A DNA stretch of 64,000 bases from a virus (IMGVR_UViG_3300015608_002119:64001-128000), one strand, 5' to 3'; positions 45,129 to 61,648 are shown, counted from the stretch's first letter. Numbers and translations: made by a program. Notes: a model not told the origin generated them from the sequence alone.

Positions 45129-45419
45129 ATGTCCATGAAAGCCAAAAACTTGGTCGGCCGACTCTTCTCTGTAAAGGAAAAGAGCCGAGAGAACGGCTGG
45201 CTATTGTTTCCTGTGATGCGCGGCAATTACGACCACGGCAGCGCTTACAAACAGACAAACGTATGCCTCGCGCCCGGAATGGTCCTGCTTGTTGTCAGGG
45301 TGACCGCGGTCTATGCTGGTTTTCATATAGCGTTCATCAATCAGGAAGGCCAGTGTGGTTGGTTCTTTGTCGCCTCTTCCACGAAAGTCGGGAATTTGTT
45401 CTCGCCGCTCTCGCACTGA
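45129..45419 (+). CDS. SH3/KOW-like family member
   Basis: LVGRLF..WLLFP...PGMVLLVV...FINQEGQCGWF; related to the 54807-56093 subfamily. Confidence 0.7.
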   Translation: MSMKAKNLVGRLFSVKEKSRENGWLLFPVMRGNYDHGSAYKQTNVCLAPGMVLLVVRVTAVYAGFHIAFINQEGQCGWFFVASSTKVGNLFSPLSH

Positions 45420-52415: not shown

Positions 52416-52506
52416 ACGAGTCACCAGCAAGGCGGCGCAGCGTAAGCAACATCTATCACCGCCAGCACACACGCAACATCACTCAAGAAAGGGTAATGGT
52501 TTCAAC

Positions 52507-52971
52507 ATGTCCACTTCTCCTCGTTCAATGCACTACCTGTTCATCCGTCATCCCGGCACCACGCACCTTGTCGGGTGCATCGCCTCCTTCCGGGAAGGGA
52601 ACAACCTGTTCCTCGGCCATGCGTTCTGTTCCAGGAACTCGTCCGACACGTTCACGAAGGCCAAGGCCCGTGAGATTGCCGGTGGCCGAGCTCGATCAAG
52701 CTACCAGCGCCTTTGCATCAAGATGAGCCCAGGCGTCAAGGCGCCGCTGGTTCTTCGCGCAATCCTCCTGACGATCATCAACTTCGGGCATGAAGTTGAC
52801 GTGCCGTCCGGGCTTGTTCGTGCATGCGCAGCCAAACTGCGCGAGTACGATATCCGGATCGGGATCACCACGGAAGCTACGTCTCTTCCTCTTCCGGTCA
52901 CCTTTTACGACGGAAAGAGAGGACGGCGAGTACGACGGAGAGAGAGGACGGCGAGCTCGAATACCGACTAA
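52507..52971 (+). CDS. phage hypothetical protein (G.A.C...D.F.K..AR.IA..RA family)
   Basis: LGHAFCS...DTFTKAKAREIAGGRA. Confidence 0.6.
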   Translation: MSTSPRSMHYLFIRHPGTTHLVGCIASFREGNNLFLGHAFCSRNSSDTFTKAKAREIAGGRARSSYQRLCIKMSPGVKAPLVLRAILLTIINFGHEVDVPSGLVRACAAKLREYDIRIGITTEATSLPLPVTFYDGKRGRRVRRRERTASSNTD

Positions 52972-53357: not shown

Positions 53358-53601
53358 TAACATTACAGTCCGGAAGCTGTACATGTTTCCCGTGTTTCCC
53401 ATCACAACCCCACGGCTTCCGTATGCGCTTTATGGCAGCGCCGCTTCCGTTTATCCCGGCGAACCGTTCATGGTGAGTAAGACCAACTGCCAGTATAAGC
53501 ATTTATATACTATGGTTATGGTGTGCAATGTTCGTGGTGAGCTTGGCCTAGTATACCCATTGCCAGATATTGTGCCATACGACATGGCCAGCCAGAAATA
53601 A
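53344..53601 (+). CDS. SH3/KOW-like family member
   Basis: KLYMF...PGEPFMV...VCNVRGELGLV; paralog of 53058. Confidence 0.65.
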   Translation: MCKPNNITVRKLYMFPVFPITTPRLPYALYGSAASVYPGEPFMVSKTNCQYKHLYTMVMVCNVRGELGLVYPLPDIVPYDMASQK

Positions 53602-53643: not shown

Positions 53644-54810
53644 ATGAACCACCAGACGCAGTACGCGCACCCGGCCCTCCTGATCCCGTTCGACGAGCTC
53701 TACGCTGGTCTTGAGGCTTGTGTTGCGGCCGGGGACGTGGATCGTCGGACACCCTCCGATGGCGACGATGATTCGGGCCTCGTTCTCTACAACTACAACG
53801 AGACGTGCCAGTTCGAGCGGCGCTGGAACAAGTACAACTGGCTGGCACGAGGGCTTGTTCTTCGGCCCTCAGAGAAGGAGATTGTCGCCCTCTGTATGCC
53901 CAAGTTCTTCAACGTGACCGAGCCCGAGGCGCCGTCGATCCATAACGGTGACGAGTACGAGGCAACGACGAAGCTCGACGGGAGCTGCGGGATCGGGTTT
54001 CACGACCGGGGCGAATGGCATGTTGCGACCCGCGGCTCGTTCTCGTCCGATCAGGCCGTATGGGCGACGAACTACCTGCGCGCCCATGCCGGTTTCATGG
54101 CGTACCTTGACCCGGACGTGACGTACATCACCGAGATCATCTATCCCGAGAACCGGGTCGTGATCAAGTACGACTTCGCAGACTTGGTGCTGCTTACCGG
54201 GTACAACAGGAAGACTGGCCACGAGCTTGATTACGTATCCGAGCTGGTGCCACTGTCACACCGGATTGGCTGCCGCGTCGCGGATCGTCACTTCTTCTCG
54301 TCCTTGCAGGAGCTTCTGGCTGTTGCGAAGGCGCTCCCTGGTACGCAGGAGGGGTTCGTTCTACGCCTCAAGGGCTCCGGTGACCGGGCCAAGGTGAAGG
54401 GTGACCAATACAAGATCATTCACAAGATGATCTCCCAGGTGACCCCGCTTGGAATCTACGAGCTCATGCTGGAAGGTAAGCCTATCGAGGAGTCCAAGCG
54501 CCTGATTCCGGAGGAGTTTTACGACGACTTCGATACGATCGTCAGACTGCTCGGTGAAAAGGTCGACCGGATCATCGACGGCACGAACGAGCTCGTGCAG
54601 TCCGTGGCGTATATGTCCGACAAGGAGGTTGGGCTGGCGATGAGTACGTTTGGGGAGTTTGGGCAGTACGTGTTCACGGCGCGCAAGAAGGGCCAAGATG
54701 CACTGCGTCTCATCGCCCTCAAGGCAGTCCGTCCGACGGGCAACCGGCTCGACGGGTACCACACCTCGATCGCGATGAACCGGGTCTTTACCTCTTCCTC
54801 GGAAGGGTGA
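53644..54810 (+). CDS. RNA ligase (T4 Rnl1-like)
   Basis: LYNY, ARGLV, PKFFN, KLDGS (motif I), ATRGSF, EIIYPENR.V, EGFV, KVK. Confidence 0.9.
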   Translation: MNHQTQYAHPALLIPFDELYAGLEACVAAGDVDRRTPSDGDDDSGLVLYNYNETCQFERRWNKYNWLARGLVLRPSEKEIVALCMPKFFNVTEPEAPSIHNGDEYEATTKLDGSCGIGFHDRGEWHVATRGSFSSDQAVWATNYLRAHAGFMAYLDPDVTYITEIIYPENRVVIKYDFADLVLLTGYNRKTGHELDYVSELVPLSHRIGCRVADRHFFSSLQELLAVAKALPGTQEGFVLRLKGSGDRAKVKGDQYKIIHKMISQVTPLGIYELMLEGKPIEESKRLIPEEFYDDFDTIVRLLGEKVDRIIDGTNELVQSVAYMSDKEVGLAMSTFGEFGQYVFTARKKGQDALRLIALKAVRPTGNRLDGYHTSIAMNRVFTSSSEG

Positions 54811-55145
54811 GTGGCGCCATGATTCTCGAACCGGGAAAGCTGTATCGGATTAGTCGGCACTTTTGGTACTTGTTCCCGACAAGTGAGCGCGCCGTCGAAT
54901 CATATGTTGCTGTCGCGGATACTGCCGCTGACGCTAGCATTGGTGCGGATTTTGCCTCCCGCAGAATTAAACAGTCAAACAACAAGGTAACCTTCATGAA
55001 CGAAGGAGAAGGCTTCCTTGTTGTTGAGGTGTCTGGCACTCAAGTCAAAGTAATCAACCAAGAAGGGAAGAGTGGCTGGATAAATTTTCCTGCAACTCAG
55101 AGTTGGACCAAAGACACGATCACCGAGATTTCCAGTGACCTTTGA
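54807..55145 (+). CDS. SH3-like variable-loop protein, copy 1
   Basis: EPGKLYRI..FW.LFPT-[variable]-VTF.NEG...VVEV...VKVINQEGKSGWINFPA..W. Confidence 0.85.
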   Translation: MSGAMILEPGKLYRISRHFWYLFPTSERAVESYVAVADTAADASIGADFASRRIKQSNNKVTFMNEGEGFLVVEVSGTQVKVINQEGKSGWINFPATQSWTKDTITEISSDL

Positions 55146-55476
55146 GCCAGGAAAACTCTTCAAGATCAACGAATACTTCTGGTTGCTGTTTCCAACGAAG
55201 GAAACAGCCGCCGCCCGCCCTCTCCCCCGCGCCGGTCATGCCGCCGATGCCGCCTTCGCAGATTCCGCCTCCGCCGTGGGCTGGGCTTCCTATTGGTCGA
55301 AGCAGCTAGATTGCACCGTTTCCTTCATAAGTGAAGGAGACACAATCATGATTGTTGAAGTTTTTGATATTCAAGTCAAAGTAATCAATCAAGAAGGAAA
55401 AGGCGGTTGGATTAATTTTCCTGCCGATAAACCTTGGAACAAAGGCACTATCACCGAGATCTCCAATGATATTTGA
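55135..55476 (+). CDS. SH3-like variable-loop protein, copy 2
   Basis: Same framework; 26-codon GC-rich insert at 55207-55284. Confidence 0.85.
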   Translation: MTFEPGKLFKINEYFWLLFPTKETAAARPLPRAGHAADAAFADSASAVGWASYWSKQLDCTVSFISEGDTIMIVEVFDIQVKVINQEGKGGWINFPADKPWNKGTITEISNDI

Positions 55477-55783
55477 ACCCGGCAAACGATACCGAATTAG
55501 CCGGTACTCATGGTTTCTGTTTCCTTCGTTGGAAACAGCCACCATCCCCTCCAACGCCTGCGCCGCGCGCGTGCTCGGCCCCGCCGCCATGGCTTCCTAT
55601 TGGTCCAAGCAACTAAACTGCGACGTCTCCTTTCTGAATGAAGGAGACGTTATCATGGTTGTTGAAATCACCGGCATTCAAGTAAAAGTAGTCAATCAGG
55701 AAGGACAAAGCGGCTGGATCAACTTTCCGGCCGATGAAGCGTGGACCGAAGATACAATTACTGAGATCTCCAATGATGCTTGA
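55466..55783 (+). CDS. SH3-like variable-loop protein, copy 3
   Basis: Same framework; 18-codon insert at 55538-55591. Confidence 0.85.
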   Translation: MIFEPGKRYRISRYSWFLFPSLETATIPSNACAARVLGPAAMASYWSKQLNCDVSFLNEGDVIMVVEITGIQVKVVNQEGQSGWINFPADEAWTEDTITEISNDA

Positions 55784-56093
55784 GCCCGGAAAGCTCTATA
55801 AGATCAACGAATGGTGCTGGCTCCTGTTCCCTACGAAGAAAGCCGCCGTTATCGGGTCCGGGATCGATCCTGGCCCACGTACGACCATCAACTACTACGT
55901 TTCCTATTGGTCAAAAGAGCTTAACTGCACTGTTTCTTTACTGGATAAGGGAGATATTTTTATGGTTGTCAAGATCTCCAATTATCAAGTTGCAGTAATC
56001 AATCAACAGGGAAAGAGTGGTTGGATTAATTTTCCTGCTGATGAAGAGTGGGCCGGACGCTGCATTGTGGCATGTGACGCGCGCCCACCTTGA
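55773..56093 (+). CDS. SH3-like variable-loop protein, copy 4
   Basis: Same framework; 18-codon insert at 55845-55898. Confidence 0.85.
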   Translation: MMLEPGKLYKINEWCWLLFPTKKAAVIGSGIDPGPRTTINYYVSYWSKELNCTVSLLDKGDIFMVVKISNYQVAVINQQGKSGWINFPADEEWAGRCIVACDARPP

Positions 56094-56113
56094 CAATTCC
56101 GCCGACGTTCGAC

Positions 56114-56143
56114 TTGACTTTGTCGACGCTGCTGTGCTAACAA
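56114..56143 (+). promoter_or_regulatory. sigma70-type early promoter
   Basis: TTGACT-18-TAACAA with TGC; ATG 7 nt downstream. Confidence 0.6.
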
Positions 56144-56150
56144 GAAATCC

Positions 56151-56438
56151 ATGGCAACACATCATACGTGGATCATTACGTCCGATCGTGGCGAAGTTCA
56201 TACCGTCTGGACACGCGACAAGCACGACTGGATCAGCGACTACTCGGACGCGACAGCCGTAGTAGGTGCTTTCGCTACCTTCACGTACGCCAGCCGCATG
56301 CAACACACATACTCGTGCAACGAGGTATGTGCGTCATCAGACGACGGCGCGGCCGAGCATATGGCGCATCAGAACGCGGTCCTTCTTCTCTTGGAGGAAA
56401 ATGGGATTGAACCTGTCGATGTGCGCCGCTCGCCTTAA
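56151..56438 (+). CDS. hypothetical protein
   Basis: ORF between two promoters. Confidence 0.6.
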   Translation: MATHHTWIITSDRGEVHTVWTRDKHDWISDYSDATAVVGAFATFTYASRMQHTYSCNEVCASSDDGAAEHMAHQNAVLLLLEENGIEPVDVRRSP

Positions 56439-56483
56439 TTTCGCTTGACTTCTGGCGGCTCATACAGCAAACTCGGACTTGCT

Positions 56484-57173
56484 ATGGATAAGCTCGTCGT
56501 CGGCCACTTCTCGGACAATCATGGTCAGGTGCCATACCGTGACCTAAACATCGAGCTGCCAGACGTTTGGGTTTGCAGTGGAGACTTCTTTCCGAACAGC
56601 ACGAGAGGCGTTGCAGACCGAGAAGTGGCATTCCAGAGGAGCTGGTATCGCAACAAGGCCAACAGCCTTTACTGGTGGTCGTTCAAGGGTAACGTTTCAC
56701 CAGCTCAGCGGTTTATGGAGTTCTTCGGCGGCGTTCCGGTGCTTGTGGTTCATGGCAACCACGACTTTGCGAACCTCGTGGACCTTTTGCAAGAGGATTG
56801 TTATCCGGCATTCGAGGTTCCGGAGACCGGCATGGACTACGAGGGCCTGCGCTGGGCTGGCGCTAGACATATTCCGTGGATTGCTGGGGAGTGGAACGGA
56901 GAGCTCCGCGCCAATGACATTTCGCGTGTGATGTCTGATGTGTTTGATACAGACCCGGACGTTCTCGTGACGCACGTGCCACCGCACGGGATCTTATCGA
57001 ACATGTACGGCTGTAACGCACTGGCGAACTGCTTTGCTTACCGCACACACAAGATCAAGACGCACATGTTTGGGCACGTGCATGAGCAGGGAGGCCAGAC
57101 CACAACGATTAACGGCGTGCTGCACAGCAACGCGGCCTGCAACCTCAACTACGTGATCATCGAGCGGCCATGA
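56484..57173 (+). CDS. calcineurin-like metallophosphoesterase
   Basis: SDNHG, GDF, GNHD, THVPP, FGHVHE. Confidence 0.9.
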   Translation: MDKLVVGHFSDNHGQVPYRDLNIELPDVWVCSGDFFPNSTRGVADREVAFQRSWYRNKANSLYWWSFKGNVSPAQRFMEFFGGVPVLVVHGNHDFANLVDLLQEDCYPAFEVPETGMDYEGLRWAGARHIPWIAGEWNGELRANDISRVMSDVFDTDPDVLVTHVPPHGILSNMYGCNALANCFAYRTHKIKTHMFGHVHEQGGQTTTINGVLHSNAACNLNYVIIERP

Positions 57174-57553
57174 GTAAACAGAAGACAGAGGCTAAGTTAC
57201 ACAAGTCAATTGAGCAAGAGCTGATTGCGTACTTTCGTGTTGGTGGCATATACAAGTCAGTCGGATCTGCACGCTGGGTCTTGTATGCAAATTCAACCGA
57301 TGTCAACTGGTATCGATTCGTGCTGCACGACGAATTAATTCCGAATGCATGTCGCACACAAGAAACATTTATGGTGCTTGAGGAATGGCGTCATCTAGGC
57401 ACACATGCACGTGCGCCTCCTAGTGGTTCGCTGCGCGTGCTCGCTGGCAATGGCATGACTGGCTACTTGCTGATTGCCGGTGGCGTCACAAAGGCCGGTC
57501 GCAACGGATTGAAACCATGGTCTGACGCTGCTCGGTTTGAGCGCATTGCATGA
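57170..57553 (+). CDS. SH3/KOW-like family member
   Basis: FRVGGIY...ETFMVLE...LRVLAGNGMTGYL. Confidence 0.6.
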   Translation: MSKQKTEAKLHKSIEQELIAYFRVGGIYKSVGSARWVLYANSTDVNWYRFVLHDELIPNACRTQETFMVLEEWRHLGTHARAPPSGSLRVLAGNGMTGYLLIAGGVTKAGRNGLKPWSDAARFERIA

Positions 57554-57580
57554 CCGGCCGGACTGGACAACAATAACCGG

Positions 57581-57609
57581 TTGACTTTAGCATCCCGGCC
57601 TGCTAGACT
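57581..57609 (+). promoter_or_regulatory. sigma70-type early promoter
   Basis: TTGACT-17-TAGACT with TGC. Confidence 0.75.
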
Positions 57610-57647
57610 CCGTCAAGTAGCACTGAACCTCAACACAGGAGCGGCCG

Positions 57648-57914
57648 ATGGAGAATGAGAGCGAGTACAGGTACGTGGTGGAGCTCAACGACGGTGCCCG
57701 GTTCTCGTCGTACACCTTTGACAAGGCGTTCGGTGTCGCTTCGGGGGTGAACCCTCCGCGGCCGATCATCAAGGTGCATCGGATCACTGGCATCGTCAAG
57801 CAGGTATGGCAGCCGTCGAAGGTGCCAGTGCTCGACATCGACTGCCTCGTTCCGACGATCAACGTGAACTCCGAAGGCGAAGAGGAGGACGTGGTTTATG
57901 ACTGCGAGTGCTGA
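57648..57914 (+). CDS. hypothetical protein
   Basis: AGGAG ribosome-binding site; GC3-rich ORF. Confidence 0.65.
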   Translation: MENESEYRYVVELNDGARFSSYTFDKAFGVASGVNPPRPIIKVHRITGIVKQVWQPSKVPVLDIDCLVPTINVNSEGEEEDVVYDCEC

Positions 57915-58296
57915 TGACAGCCTGCGCTGCGCGATCGACCGGGAACGTGAGAGGATGCGCGCGATGGGTCGCGTTCTGATCGAATACTGCAACCTGCCGG
58001 TCACGGGTAACCTGCTGATCAACGGCGGTCTTCGATTGGTTGATGAGCAGACCGGCCGGTACAGGTTTGCCGCGGCGATGGACGAGGGTGAGGCGGCATT
58101 CAAGATCGCCACAACGGCAGCGCTGGCAGAGGAGTACCTGGATTCAGGCCGTGCGAGTGATATGCTTGGTTACGGTGCCATCTATCACCTTGAGAACGCT
58201 GAGTCCATGGTGATGCGGCTTGTCGATGGCATGTGTGGTGATGACACCGATCGGTACCTGAGCGCACTGCACGAGATCCGCCCGCCCGCTGAGTGA
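57898..58296 (+). CDS. hypothetical protein
   Basis: GGAGG ribosome-binding site; coupled ORF. Confidence 0.6.
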   Translation: MTASADDSLRCAIDRERERMRAMGRVLIEYCNLPVTGNLLINGGLRLVDEQTGRYRFAAAMDEGEAAFKIATTAALAEEYLDSGRASDMLGYGAIYHLENAESMVMRLVDGMCGDDTDRYLSALHEIRPPAE

Positions 58297-58559
58297 TCGT
58301 CGTGCCACATAATACCGAGCCAACACCGGTTGCTATCATCAAGCAGCGCTTGGAGCGCGAGCAGATGATTCGGCTGCTAACTGAGCTTGTCAATAGCTCA
58401 AGTGACACGGAGAGCTGCTCTCCTGGTCCTCCAAGCACATATACCTACTGCATACACTGCAAGGGCCGCTGGCCATGCAAGAACACAAGGACGTGTGTTG
58501 TTGGTAAGGCAGCACTGCTGCTTAAGCAGCTGACCGGCCATATGGACAGCACACGCTGA
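58293..58559 (+). CDS. small Cys-containing hypothetical protein
   Basis: YCIHC...C.V..A. Confidence 0.5.
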   Translation: MIVVPHNTEPTPVAIIKQRLEREQMIRLLTELVNSSSDTESCSPGPPSTYTYCIHCKGRWPCKNTRTCVVGKAALLLKQLTGHMDSTR

Positions 58560-58561
58560 TA

Positions 58562-58945
58562 ATGAACGAGGCCGATATCATGCAGTCAGACACATCGGTA
58601 CGACGCTGCTTTGAGCCTGGGAAGCTCTATAGGATCGACCGATGGTTTTGGCTTCTGTTTCCAACAAAGGAAACAGCCGCCGCCGCTGCCGCAGCCACCC
58701 GCGCCTCCGCCGCCGCGCTCACCCGCGCCTCCGCCGCCGCCTCTTGGGCTTCCTATTGGTCAAAAGAACTGAATTGCAATGTCTCCTTCATGAGTAAAGG
58801 AGACATTTTGATGGTTGTTGAAGTTGCCGGTGAACAAATGAAAGTTATCAGCCAAGAAGGAAAGAGCGGTTGGATAAACTTTCCTGCCGGTGAGGAATGG
58901 ACGAAGAATGCCATCGTTGAATCCGCCAAAGGCGTCCTAAACTAG
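58562..58945 (+). CDS. SH3-like variable-loop protein, copy 5 (dispersed)
   Basis: Same framework as 55135; 24-codon Ala-rich insert at 58676-58747 with an internal 24-nt-period repeat. Confidence 0.85.
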   Translation: MNEADIMQSDTSVRRCFEPGKLYRIDRWFWLLFPTKETAAAAAAATRASAAALTRASAAASWASYWSKELNCNVSFMSKGDILMVVEVAGEQMKVISQEGKSGWINFPAGEEWTKNAIVESAKGVLN

Positions 58946-60599: not shown

Positions 60600-60628
60600 T
60601 TGACTTGGGGCGCGCGCCGTGGTACCAT
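60600..60628 (+). promoter_or_regulatory. sigma70-type early promoter
   Basis: TTGACT-17-TACCAT with TGG. Confidence 0.75.
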
Positions 60629-60637
60629 CGGAGCATC

Positions 60638-61648
60638 ATGCAACAAAAACAGTATACGGTGTACGTGTCTGGGATACAGCCGTCCGGTACAATGCACCTG
60701 GGAAACTACTTCGGCGCAATAAAGCCGATGCTCGATCTCAGGGCATCAAGTCATGACGCAGAGCTGGCAATGTTCGTGGCCAACTACCACGCCATGACCA
60801 CACAGACCGACGCCAAGCGGCTATCCGAGGATACCAGGATCATGGTCCTCACGCTCAGAGCGCTCGGGCTCGACCCGCACGTGCAATCGACGTTTCCAAT
60901 TATGCATGAGGTCGCTGGCCTGCTGTCAAACGTGGCGTCGTTTGGGTTGCTGAGGCGCAATGGCGCGTTCAAGACCAAGAACGGCAACGCCAATGCAGAC
61001 CCGCGCACTCACGGCCTGTTCTCGTACCCGCTCTTGATGACCGCAGACATTCTCGTGTTTGGATATCGAGGTCCAAACACGAACATCGCTGTGGTCGTGG
61101 GGCCTGATCAGATGCAACACCTGGAGATCGCTCAGGAAATCATCGCGGCGTTCAATCTCCGGTTCAACGCAAACTTGCCAATACCCAAGGCTGTTTGTTT
61201 GTCCGGCGTCACTGTGCCCGGCACTGACGGCCGCAAGATGTCAAAGAGTTACAAGAACATCATCCCGGTCATTGGCACTGACGCCGAGTACAAGAAGGCC
61301 ATCAACTCGATTGTCACCGACTCTATGCCGGTCGATGAGCCAAAGAGCCCGTATAACCGTACGCCCTATGTCCTGTATGACCTGTTGGAAAACGACAAGG
61401 CCAAGGCCGGTGAGATGGCAAGGAAGTACCTCGCTGGTGGCTATGGCGACGGCCACGCCAAGAAGGAGTTGCTGGCGAAGGTAATCGAAACGTTTGGACC
61501 GGTCTGTGATCGGTTCAGAAACATGCTTGACTCTGCCGCGGAGTTTCAGGTACAGTACACGGCTAGCGATGACCGAGACTCTAACGCAAGGTCGCATGCG
61601 AACAACCTTGCGAAGTACATGCGCAACAAGGCGGGGGTAGTTTGTTAG
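60638..61648 (+). CDS. trpS: tryptophanyl-tRNA synthetase
   Basis: SGIQPSG..HLGNY.GA, A.YHA.T, VQS, YPLLM.ADIL, G.DQ.QHLE, PGTDGRKMSKS. Confidence 0.9.
   Translation: MQQKQYTVYVSGIQPSGTMHLGNYFGAIKPMLDLRASSHDAELAMFVANYHAMTTQTDAKRLSEDTRIMVLTLRALGLDPHVQSTFPIMHEVAGLLSNVASFGLLRRNGAFKTKNGNANADPRTHGLFSYPLLMTADILVFGYRGPNTNIAVVVGPDQMQHLEIAQEIIAAFNLRFNANLPIPKAVCLSGVTVPGTDGRKMSKSYKNIIPVIGTDAEYKKAINSIVTDSMPVDEPKSPYNRTPYVLYDLLENDKAKAGEMARKYLAGGYGDGHAKKELLAKVIETFGPVCDRFRNMLDSAAEFQVQYTASDDRDSNARSHANNLAKYMRNKAGVVC

Follow-up and report, generated by a model that had tools for sequence, protein, structure and literature searches.

A multicopy SH3-like protein family of an uncultured jumbo phage with a GC-rich, repeat-like loop cassette that differs between near-identical genomes

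A family of small genes built around a sharply bounded cassette

The window analyzed here is a stretch of 64,000 nucleotides (nt), bases 64001-128000 of the 163,485-bp viral contig IMGVR_UViG_3300015608_002119 (CheckV completeness of ~44%), whose source is an uncultured jumbo phage. On its plus strand lie five related open reading frames (ORFs), c1 to c5, in each of which a shared framework surrounds a middle segment, the cassette, that cannot be aligned between copies (Table 1). A first-pass annotation of the window had described these five paralogs, and all of them proved to be real, with the cassette coordinates, the codon counts (26, 18, 18, and 24 for c2 to c5), and the flanking words (GAAACA, or AAAGCC in c4, on the 5′ side and G(C/T)TTCCTATTGG on the 3′ side) exact. 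Five is not the full complement of the contig, however, as a family profile search raised the total to 13 copies, comprising these five, the divergent copy c0 elsewhere in the window, and seven more just downstream of it.

The cassettes of c2, c3, and c5 stand out from the framework, which has a GC content of 0.40 to 0.47, both in overall composition (Table 1) and in the phase in which that composition is laid down. The third codon position is C in 0.60 to 0.68 of their codons, against 0.27 to 0.31 expected from amino acid content and genome codon usage (p ≤ 0.0006; for c2, 0.60 against 0.31, p = 0.0006). With the addition of c11, which lies outside the window, the range for the four GC-rich cassettes is 0.58 to 0.68 (p ≤ 0.001), and the other copies show no excess. 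The annotation had implied that c1 and c4 are compositionally ordinary, and their GC contents agree.

The GC-rich cassettes also have the character of a tandem repeat. Four cassettes, which make up ~0.2% of the 163-kb contig, hold 6 of its 14 perfect GCC-type runs and 4 of its 10 most GC-rich 45-nt blocks, a concentration greatly exceeding what chance would give. Tandem Repeats Finder reported a 15-nt unit present 2.3 times in c2 (55241-55274) and, in c5, both a period of 3 repeated 22 times and a period of 24 repeated 2.6 times with a 90% match (58678-58740). Furthermore, repeated in-frame di-codons numbered 230 in GC-rich cassettes, compared with 162 ± 18 in codon shuffles (p < 0.0005), and repeated in-frame tri-codons numbered 64, compared with 34 ± 12 (p ~0.02); cassettes of ordinary composition contained no internal repeated in-frame words at all. 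Repeat finding, the enrichment of GCC runs, and the internal words thus agree in placing a tandem repeat tract within the gene, as in simple-sequence-repeat loci.

Table 1. Positions of family genes, cassettes, hairpins, and flanking genes, counted from the first base of the window
Feature	Coordinates	Strand	Remarks
c1, SH3-like family copy	54807-55145	+	Likely start ATG at 54819; family hidden Markov model (HMM) E = 2e-55
c1 cassette	54882-54956	+	GC 0.57; ordinary composition, no excess of third-position C; conserved
c2	55135-55476	+	GTG start; overlaps c1 end
c2 cassette	55207-55284	+	26 codons; GC 0.79, A 0.05; C-rich, mostly NNC codons
c3	55466-55783	+	Protein used for AlphaFold model
c3 cassette	55538-55591	+	18 codons; GC 0.80, A 0.09
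c4	55773-56093	+	Without the 5′ hairpin
c4 cassette	55845-55898	+	18 codons; GC 0.59, A 0.20; ordinary composition, conserved
c5	58562-58945	+	3 kb downstream of the others; 17-residue N-terminal extension
c5 cassette	58676-58747	+	24 codons; GC 0.86, A 0.04; degenerate (GCC)n, internal 24-nt tandem duplication
c0, divergent copy without insert	45129-45419	+	Weak HMM match, E = 2e-3
Hairpin, CTGTTTCC-N6-GGAAACAG	55183-55209 (c2), 55514-55540 (c3), 58652-58678 (c5)	+	8- to 9-bp stem; ends at first cassette codon
RNA ligase gene	53644-54810	+	Directly 5′ of the c1-c4 array; Pfam match on L006 and L008 orthologs
Metallophos (calcineurin-like) phosphoesterase	56445-57173		Pfam
Class I Trp/Tyr-type tRNA synthetase	60605-61648		Pfam

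GC-rich cassettes are resized or replaced between close relatives

The paralogs c1 to c5 are old, with frameworks that are saturated at synonymous sites (proportion of synonymous differences, pS, 0.58 to 0.84) and a ratio of nonsynonymous to synonymous rates (dN/dS) below 0.2 where computable. Because of this saturation, the fact that paralogous cassettes cannot be aligned is not evidence of active diversification; we rejected that line of argument and therefore compared orthologs, using the related-phage contigs L002 to L008, which, like all other sequences compared here, come from metagenome assemblies. The window aligns collinearly with L007 over 6.4 kb (96.6% identity) and with L006 over 6.7 kb (92.4%).

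We found that the GC-rich cassettes of c2, c3, c5, and c11 are hypervariable between such near-identical genomes (92 to 97%), in which they have been resized or replaced. The c2 cassette is replaced in L006, the c3 cassette carries a 6-nt in-frame indel relative to both L006 and L007 (with a divergent tract in L007 over nt 18 to 110 of the gene), and the c11 cassette differs between genomes by indels and repeats. At the c5 locus, five genomes hold five different cassettes, of 20 to 36 codons, between an identical N terminus and C-terminal tail, and the variant P0275, from a 90%-identity cluster, departs from c5 nowhere but in the cassette, where its changes run toward plain GCC units. The remaining cassettes behave as the framework does. 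That of c4 is identical in three genomes, that of c1 differs from its L006 ortholog by only 2 substitutions, and comparison with orthologs gave 27 of 29 matching residues for c6 and 23 of 29 for c12, the latter with a 4-codon tandem duplication in one relative. Likewise, among eight cluster variants of c1 and five of c4, it is the framework that varies and the cassette hardly at all (the c1 cassette is constant in 7 of the 8).

Composition separated the two classes without overlap: in a set of 31 cassettes on 8 contigs, every cassette with a GC content of ≤0.63 was conserved and every one with a GC content of ≥0.74 differed between genomes, the stable cassettes being those in which no repeat character remains. 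The first-pass annotation had named cassettes as conserved as their frameworks as the outcome that would speak against it; this is what we observed for c1, c4, c6, and c12, but not for c2, c3, c5, and c11. Gaps are concentrated in the same place, as the cassettes account for 2 to 3% of the aligned length and for 6 of the 9 gaps against L007 and 12 of the 34 against L006. Length polymorphism among close relatives was confined to the tract, the behavior by which simple-sequence-repeat loci are recognized.

Mosaic copies point to exchange among paralogs and genomes

Several copies proved to be mosaics. When orthologs were painted against the set of paralogs, copy 2 of L006 (L006:5676-6011) matched c2 at both ends and c5 in a 90-nt middle, which is identical to c5 and gave 30/30-identical windows. 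Copy 2 of L008 is c3-like at its 5′ end and c4 at its 3′ end, and the interval from the ligase to the phosphoesterase in that contig (L008:4061-4703) holds two copies where the window holds four (54807-56093); two copies together with a c3-like/c4 fusion is the outcome expected from unequal crossover. Similarly, c11 combines the N terminus of one L002 copy with the C terminus of the next.

At c5, the tract that is replaced relative to L007 begins in the middle of the cassette and takes in ~60 nt of the framework as well. L007 and L006 differ from each other in the 5′ half of the cassette only, and the c5 alleles share sub-blocks in a mosaic pattern. Slippage and paralog exchange had been among the mechanisms listed by the annotation, and the repeat units, internal repeats, and mosaic copies support both. 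We also considered whether cassette cores are copied from the cassettes of other paralogs and rejected this idea, since only low-complexity 14-mers were shared and the sample contained no donors. Two truncated copies in L002 (L002:4217-4462 and L002:7393-7776), an N-terminally truncated c10 ortholog and a c12 ortholog that ends soon after its cassette, look like decaying paralogs.

The cassette forms the core of a helical insert in a predicted SH3-like barrel

Searches by sequence were of little help in classifying the proteins. Pfam returned no family at E ≤ 1 except two chance-level matches, its SH3 families (SH3_3, SH3_4, and others) gave no sequence match above the curated threshold, PHROGs gave nothing informative, and the family is not described in a review of jumbo phages (PMC7824862). 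A profile search of 1.84 billion representatives recovered 263 clusters, 70 of them at E ≤ 1e-10; nearly all comprise proteins of 95 to 120 residues with the same layout, and all named homologs are called “hypothetical protein” and lack a Pfam domain.

We modeled c3 with AlphaFold from a 135-sequence alignment (an earlier run with 13 sequences, mean predicted local distance difference test score [pLDDT] of 58.6, was not used), obtaining a pLDDT of 92 and a predicted template modeling score of 0.83. The model runs from two N-terminal strands through a loop and short helix (residues 24 to 38, pLDDT 74 to 86) and a conserved helix (residues 39 to 49) to a beta meander. Almost all of the top 50 Foldseek matches were SH3 domains (best match 3h41, E = 0.036, template modeling score normalized to the query 0.54), and an exhaustive structural search with VIA-align placed SH3b domains first (2evr, Z = 7.1; 3h41, Z = 6.7; endolysin 4krt, Z = 6.1), with root mean square deviations of 2.4 to 3.1 Å over 63 to 84 residues; Z values below 8 are taken here as support for a common fold only. 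The SH3-like fold that the annotation had proposed, and for which it had called for structure prediction, was thus borne out, and we conclude that the protein is predicted to be, at the level of fold, a small SH3-like beta-barrel with a helical insert. Although its best structural matches are the SH3b domains of endolysin 4krt and of NlpC/P60 proteins (N-terminal domains 2evr and 3h41), the phage protein differs from them in standing alone at ~105 residues, in giving no Pfam SH3 match, and in carrying a two-helix insert of ~35 residues.

This large insert, whose variable core is the cassette, follows the first strands and precedes the “GD-hydrophobic-VE” strand. The annotation had placed the cassette at the RT loop, and the order of the strands and the motifs (“KLY.I” in the first strand and “GD..MVVE” in the next core strand) suggest the same position. 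No part of the protein varies more across the family than the insert core (entropy of 3.4 to 3.96 bits), which has a length of 10 to 36 residues and an alanine content of 22%, against 4% elsewhere. This loop may be a binding surface, and its variation could supply the phage with a repertoire of binders expressed early, which the annotation suggested might act in anti-defense or host takeover. One of the copies beyond the window, c8 (L001:2524-2751; contig 130524-130751), is only 75 residues long and lacks both the cassette and the conserved helix, yet it is 96% identical to its L002 ortholog, so that a barrel devoid of the insert can apparently be maintained.

Two codon flavors in AT-rich phage lineages

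Family copies are present on four other phage records, which carry 25, 13, 3, and 1 of them. In four independent, AT-rich records (framework GC content of ~0.36), 30 of 35 copies have a cassette GC content of 0.57 to 0.87, the mean GC content at third positions is 0.69 in the cassette against 0.35 (p = 2e-8), and the GC-rich plateau is bounded to aligned positions 24 to 39. The cassettes come in two flavors, one of NNC codons (C at 72% of third positions, with GCC dominant) and one of NNG codons (G at 79%, with GCG dominant), which segregate by gene cluster and whose amino acid repertoires differ accordingly. A GCC array that is reverse complemented and read one base over becomes a GCG array, and the position-specific compositions of the two flavors are mirror images; therefore, a single duplex repeat lying in the alanine frame accounts for both.

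The record with 25 copies, G002 (IMG/VR, 260,466 bp, 40% GC; loci L046 to L058), has them in about five clusters (49.5 to 50.8, 110 to 111.4, 115.5 to 118.7, 121.4 to 122.7, and 130.2 to 131.2 kb), with the two flavors sorted by cluster. Although the family covers 2.8% of this genome, its cassettes constitute 19 of the 33 GC-rich islands, the others being Pro/Ala linkers that show no third-position purity. Paralogs whose frameworks are 86 to 89% identical have cassettes that cannot be aligned and that differ in length by up to 33 nt. Three further contigs, L009 to L011, are uninformative about recent change because they are 99.98 to 100% identical to G002.

We rejected the explanation that GC-rich third positions are a by-product of Ala and Pro content, since the excess survives correction for amino acid content and codon usage and the other Ala/Pro linkers of G002 use A- or T-ending codons. 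GC-rich Pro/Ala/Gln tails also occur in unrelated proteins (contig 52501-52608 and 53380-53427, before the window, and G002:47000-47087); these linkers, of an ordinary low-complexity kind, show no codon-phase purity and were used as an internal control.

A hairpin at the cassette edge

A short hairpin abuts the cassettes of c2, c3, and c5. Its minimum free energy (MFE) is -14.2, -11.1, and -10.5 kcal/mol, respectively, compared with about -3 kcal/mol for synonymous recodings (p ≤ 0.02), and across 29 copies of this lineage, which are not independent of one another, MFE falls with cassette GC content (rho = -0.59, p = 8e-4). The stem-closing base is the third-position G of three codons (AAG, TTG, and GCG) in different copies. 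The hairpin may act in pausing or recombination, or it may be a by-product of the codons for LFP..ET; we treat it as a lead rather than as a demonstrated element.

In-frame repeat instability and exchange as the probable source of loop variation

The explanation that we favor, to which we would assign a probability of about 0.6, is that the cassette, placed in a loop of the binding type, is a triplet microsatellite kept in frame, which slippage renews and recombination shuffles, with neither a reverse transcriptase nor a template. The cassette would be a degenerate (GCC)n·(GGC)n microsatellite read in the alanine frame, giving GCC and other NNC codons in one orientation and GCG and other NNG codons in the other. 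As long as the tract remained repeat-like it would be unstable, with slippage and small tandem duplications and deletions altering both how long it is and what it contains; gene conversion and unequal crossover, as homologous exchange among tandem paralogs and among phage genomes, would swap tracts, often with endpoints within the cassette; and a tract that had decayed to ordinary composition would become as stable as the framework. Slippage is probably the main generator of cassette change. We hold only tentatively the fuller version of this account, in which the loop is a self-renewing hypermutable element, free of reverse transcriptase and perhaps aided by the hairpin, that changes a repertoire of binders under diversifying selection at codon positions 1 and 2.

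Two known kinds of system provide parallels. Bacterial contingency loci, in which slipped-strand mispairing changes the length of simple sequence repeats much faster than the surrounding DNA mutates, so that a single locus varies heritably (PMC4081817, PMC4085013), likewise have a short tandem repeat within the gene, and here too indels concentrate in the repeat; the present case differs in that the unit is an in-frame triplet, so that the sequence and length of a loop change instead of expression being switched on and off, and in that the repeat is degenerate, codon phased, and part of a multicopy viral family. The second parallel is with tandem multigene families that evolve by gene conversion and unequal crossover, with which the phage genes share an arrangement of tandem, translationally coupled paralogs, mosaic copies, and differences in copy number among close relatives. 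Hyperplastic early regions of phages are an example of such families. What sets the present genes apart is that the conversion tracts frame a hypermutable repeat, while the frameworks remain under the purifying selection noted above.

Several observations weigh against repeat instability and exchange as a sufficient account. In the NNG flavor, codons differ from GCG at each of positions 1 and 2 in 53 to 55% of cases and at position 3 in only 21%, and in the NNC flavor the differences from GCC at positions 1, 2, and 3 are 40%, 39%, and 28%. Third-position purity thus exceeds what simple neutral decay of a repeat would leave, although part of the excess comes from the choice of groups, and it is kept across paralogs whose cassettes cannot be aligned, even in 40%-GC phages that use A/T-ending codons in their Ala/Pro linkers elsewhere. 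Most replaced cassette cores have no donor among the sampled cassettes, and some of the mosaics could be artifacts of metagenome assembly; for copy 2 of L006 an artifact is unlikely, because c2 and c5 are identical over only 18 bases at the junction. Some form of renewal or selection keeps the pattern up, possibly ongoing slippage, selection for amino acid change, selection at the nucleotide level, or a directed process. Third-position purity that lasts over long periods in AT-rich genomes is a regularity for which the favored account is only a partial explanation.

A directed process would be a dedicated mechanism other than a retroelement that fills the loop anew with NNC or NNG codons, for example, by a structure- or site-directed nick followed by error-prone or template-switching synthesis, with the hairpin as its cis signal. 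Such a mechanism would account for a codon-phased purity that is specific to the family cassette and absent from GC-rich linkers of the same genome, for an amino acid repertoire that tracks codon flavor, for unalignable cassettes between paralogs of high framework identity, and, in this lineage, for a hairpin of 8 to 9 bp whose end coincides with the start of the hypervariable cassettes and which most stable cassettes, c12 being an exception, lack or have only in weak form. We consider it unlikely, because no candidate enzyme was identified and, apart from conservation that the protein sequence itself demands, the lineages share no nucleotide motif next to the cassette. The AT-rich lineages show no significant hairpin, and in the present lineage its copies are connected through descent or conversion. 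In addition, codons one step from GCC number 43, 23, and 28 for the first, second, and third positions, a fairly even spread of the kind expected from ordinary repeat mutation, and the excess of internal repeats fits slippage.

Selection at the level of nucleotides or translation is improbable as the main cause. In this scenario, composition would be kept for its own sake, through rare codons at which ribosomes slow down midway between the halves of the barrel or through a DNA property such as strand asymmetry in G or C, while the sequence drifted by ordinary mutation and indels; it is consistent with the conservation of composition but not of sequence in five lineages with genome GC contents of 40 to 53% and with the rarity of G- and C-ending codons in the AT-rich phages (17% C and 19% G at framework third positions). 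GC selection alone, however, would not yield third positions that are one-sidedly C in some gene clusters and one-sidedly G in others, and the composition is dispensable, because 13 of 46 cassettes are ordinary and stably inherited. We found no signal of RNA structure in the cassettes (z = -0.3 to +1.1 against dinucleotide shuffles), and RNA structure is thus not the reason for third-position purity. The concentration of indels would also be left unexplained.

Tests for a diversity-generating retroelement

To our knowledge, targeted diversification of phage proteins is known almost only from diversity-generating retroelements (DGRs) acting on tail-fiber lectin folds. A DGR, acting in trans or as a DGR-like process on the antisense strand, had been proposed in the first-pass annotation, and we found against it in cis, in trans, and in antisense, there being no reverse transcriptase in the records searched, no template on either strand of the two genomes scanned, and variation that takes the form of indels and length change. 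RVT_1 had no match on the 163-kb contig or on the four other family-bearing records (123, 260, 87, and 17 kb; 4 to 70% complete; ~650 kb in all) in a search in which the control genomes scored. A blastn-short search found no second copy of any cassette, the best non-self match covering 18 nt at the framework border. When both strands were scanned for templates under an identity-or-A rule, 10 to 15 non-A mismatches were left in G000 and 6 to 19 in G002, the same as in shuffled controls; the shared A-rich “best template” window, at G002:198,960, was rejected as the Lys/Ala/Glu-rich tail of an 874-residue ORF. The cassette flanks have no nongenic copies in G002, where all 8 of the 8 pattern matches were gene copies. 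Orthologous cassettes, moreover, do not show substitution at a fixed length but in-frame indels, and a DGR could not bring about such length change, since the template copied in mutagenic retrohoming has a fixed length (PMC3240598).

The phage cassettes do resemble DGR targets (PMC3240598, PMC5703328) in combining localized diversity in the putative binding surface of a phage protein, an NNC-rich segment, and an adjoining hairpin, which here lies upstream of the variable segment and in DGRs lies downstream. A DGR working in trans from a part of the genome outside the contig is nevertheless highly improbable despite the likeness of the NNC-rich codons to AAC-derived variable regions and the incompleteness of the contig, since the records searched include one that has 25 copies and is 70% complete, neither strand of two genomes contained a window better than the shuffled controls, cassette length differs among paralogs as well as orthologs, an NNG flavor would permit TAG stops, and the variable loop is internal to an SH3-like fold instead of being a C-terminal variable region. 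A word of caution follows for annotation, as NNC-rich, A-poor hypervariable segments can imitate the signature of a DGR where there is none.

What the window adds is a large, unannotated SH3-like family that occurs in several large-phage lineages, at up to 25 copies in a genome, and in which a loop turns over between genomes that are 92 to 97% identical. If the variation is adaptive, repeat instability together with exchange among paralogs would be a cheap, enzyme-free way of varying early-region binders, with a bearing on the arms races between phages and their hosts.

Genomic setting of the array

Neither megablast nor tblastn found a relative among isolated phages. A Pfam scan of the window proteins identified a baseplate and tail-fiber module (Baseplate_J and LamG proteins) upstream of the array, and the family genes themselves sit in a region of small genes beside an RNA ligase, a phosphoesterase, and a tRNA synthetase. 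The ligase is of the Rnl1 type and, by tblastn, ~30% identical to phage RNA ligases. The three enzymes flanking the array resemble an RNA-repair/translation cluster, the synteny of which is kept in L006, L007, and L008. Around c5, the gene calls differ among relatives: in L006 the small upstream ORF and the c5 ortholog are called as one 167-residue frame (L006:9005-9508), whereas in the window (58293-58945) and in L007 they are separate ORFs.

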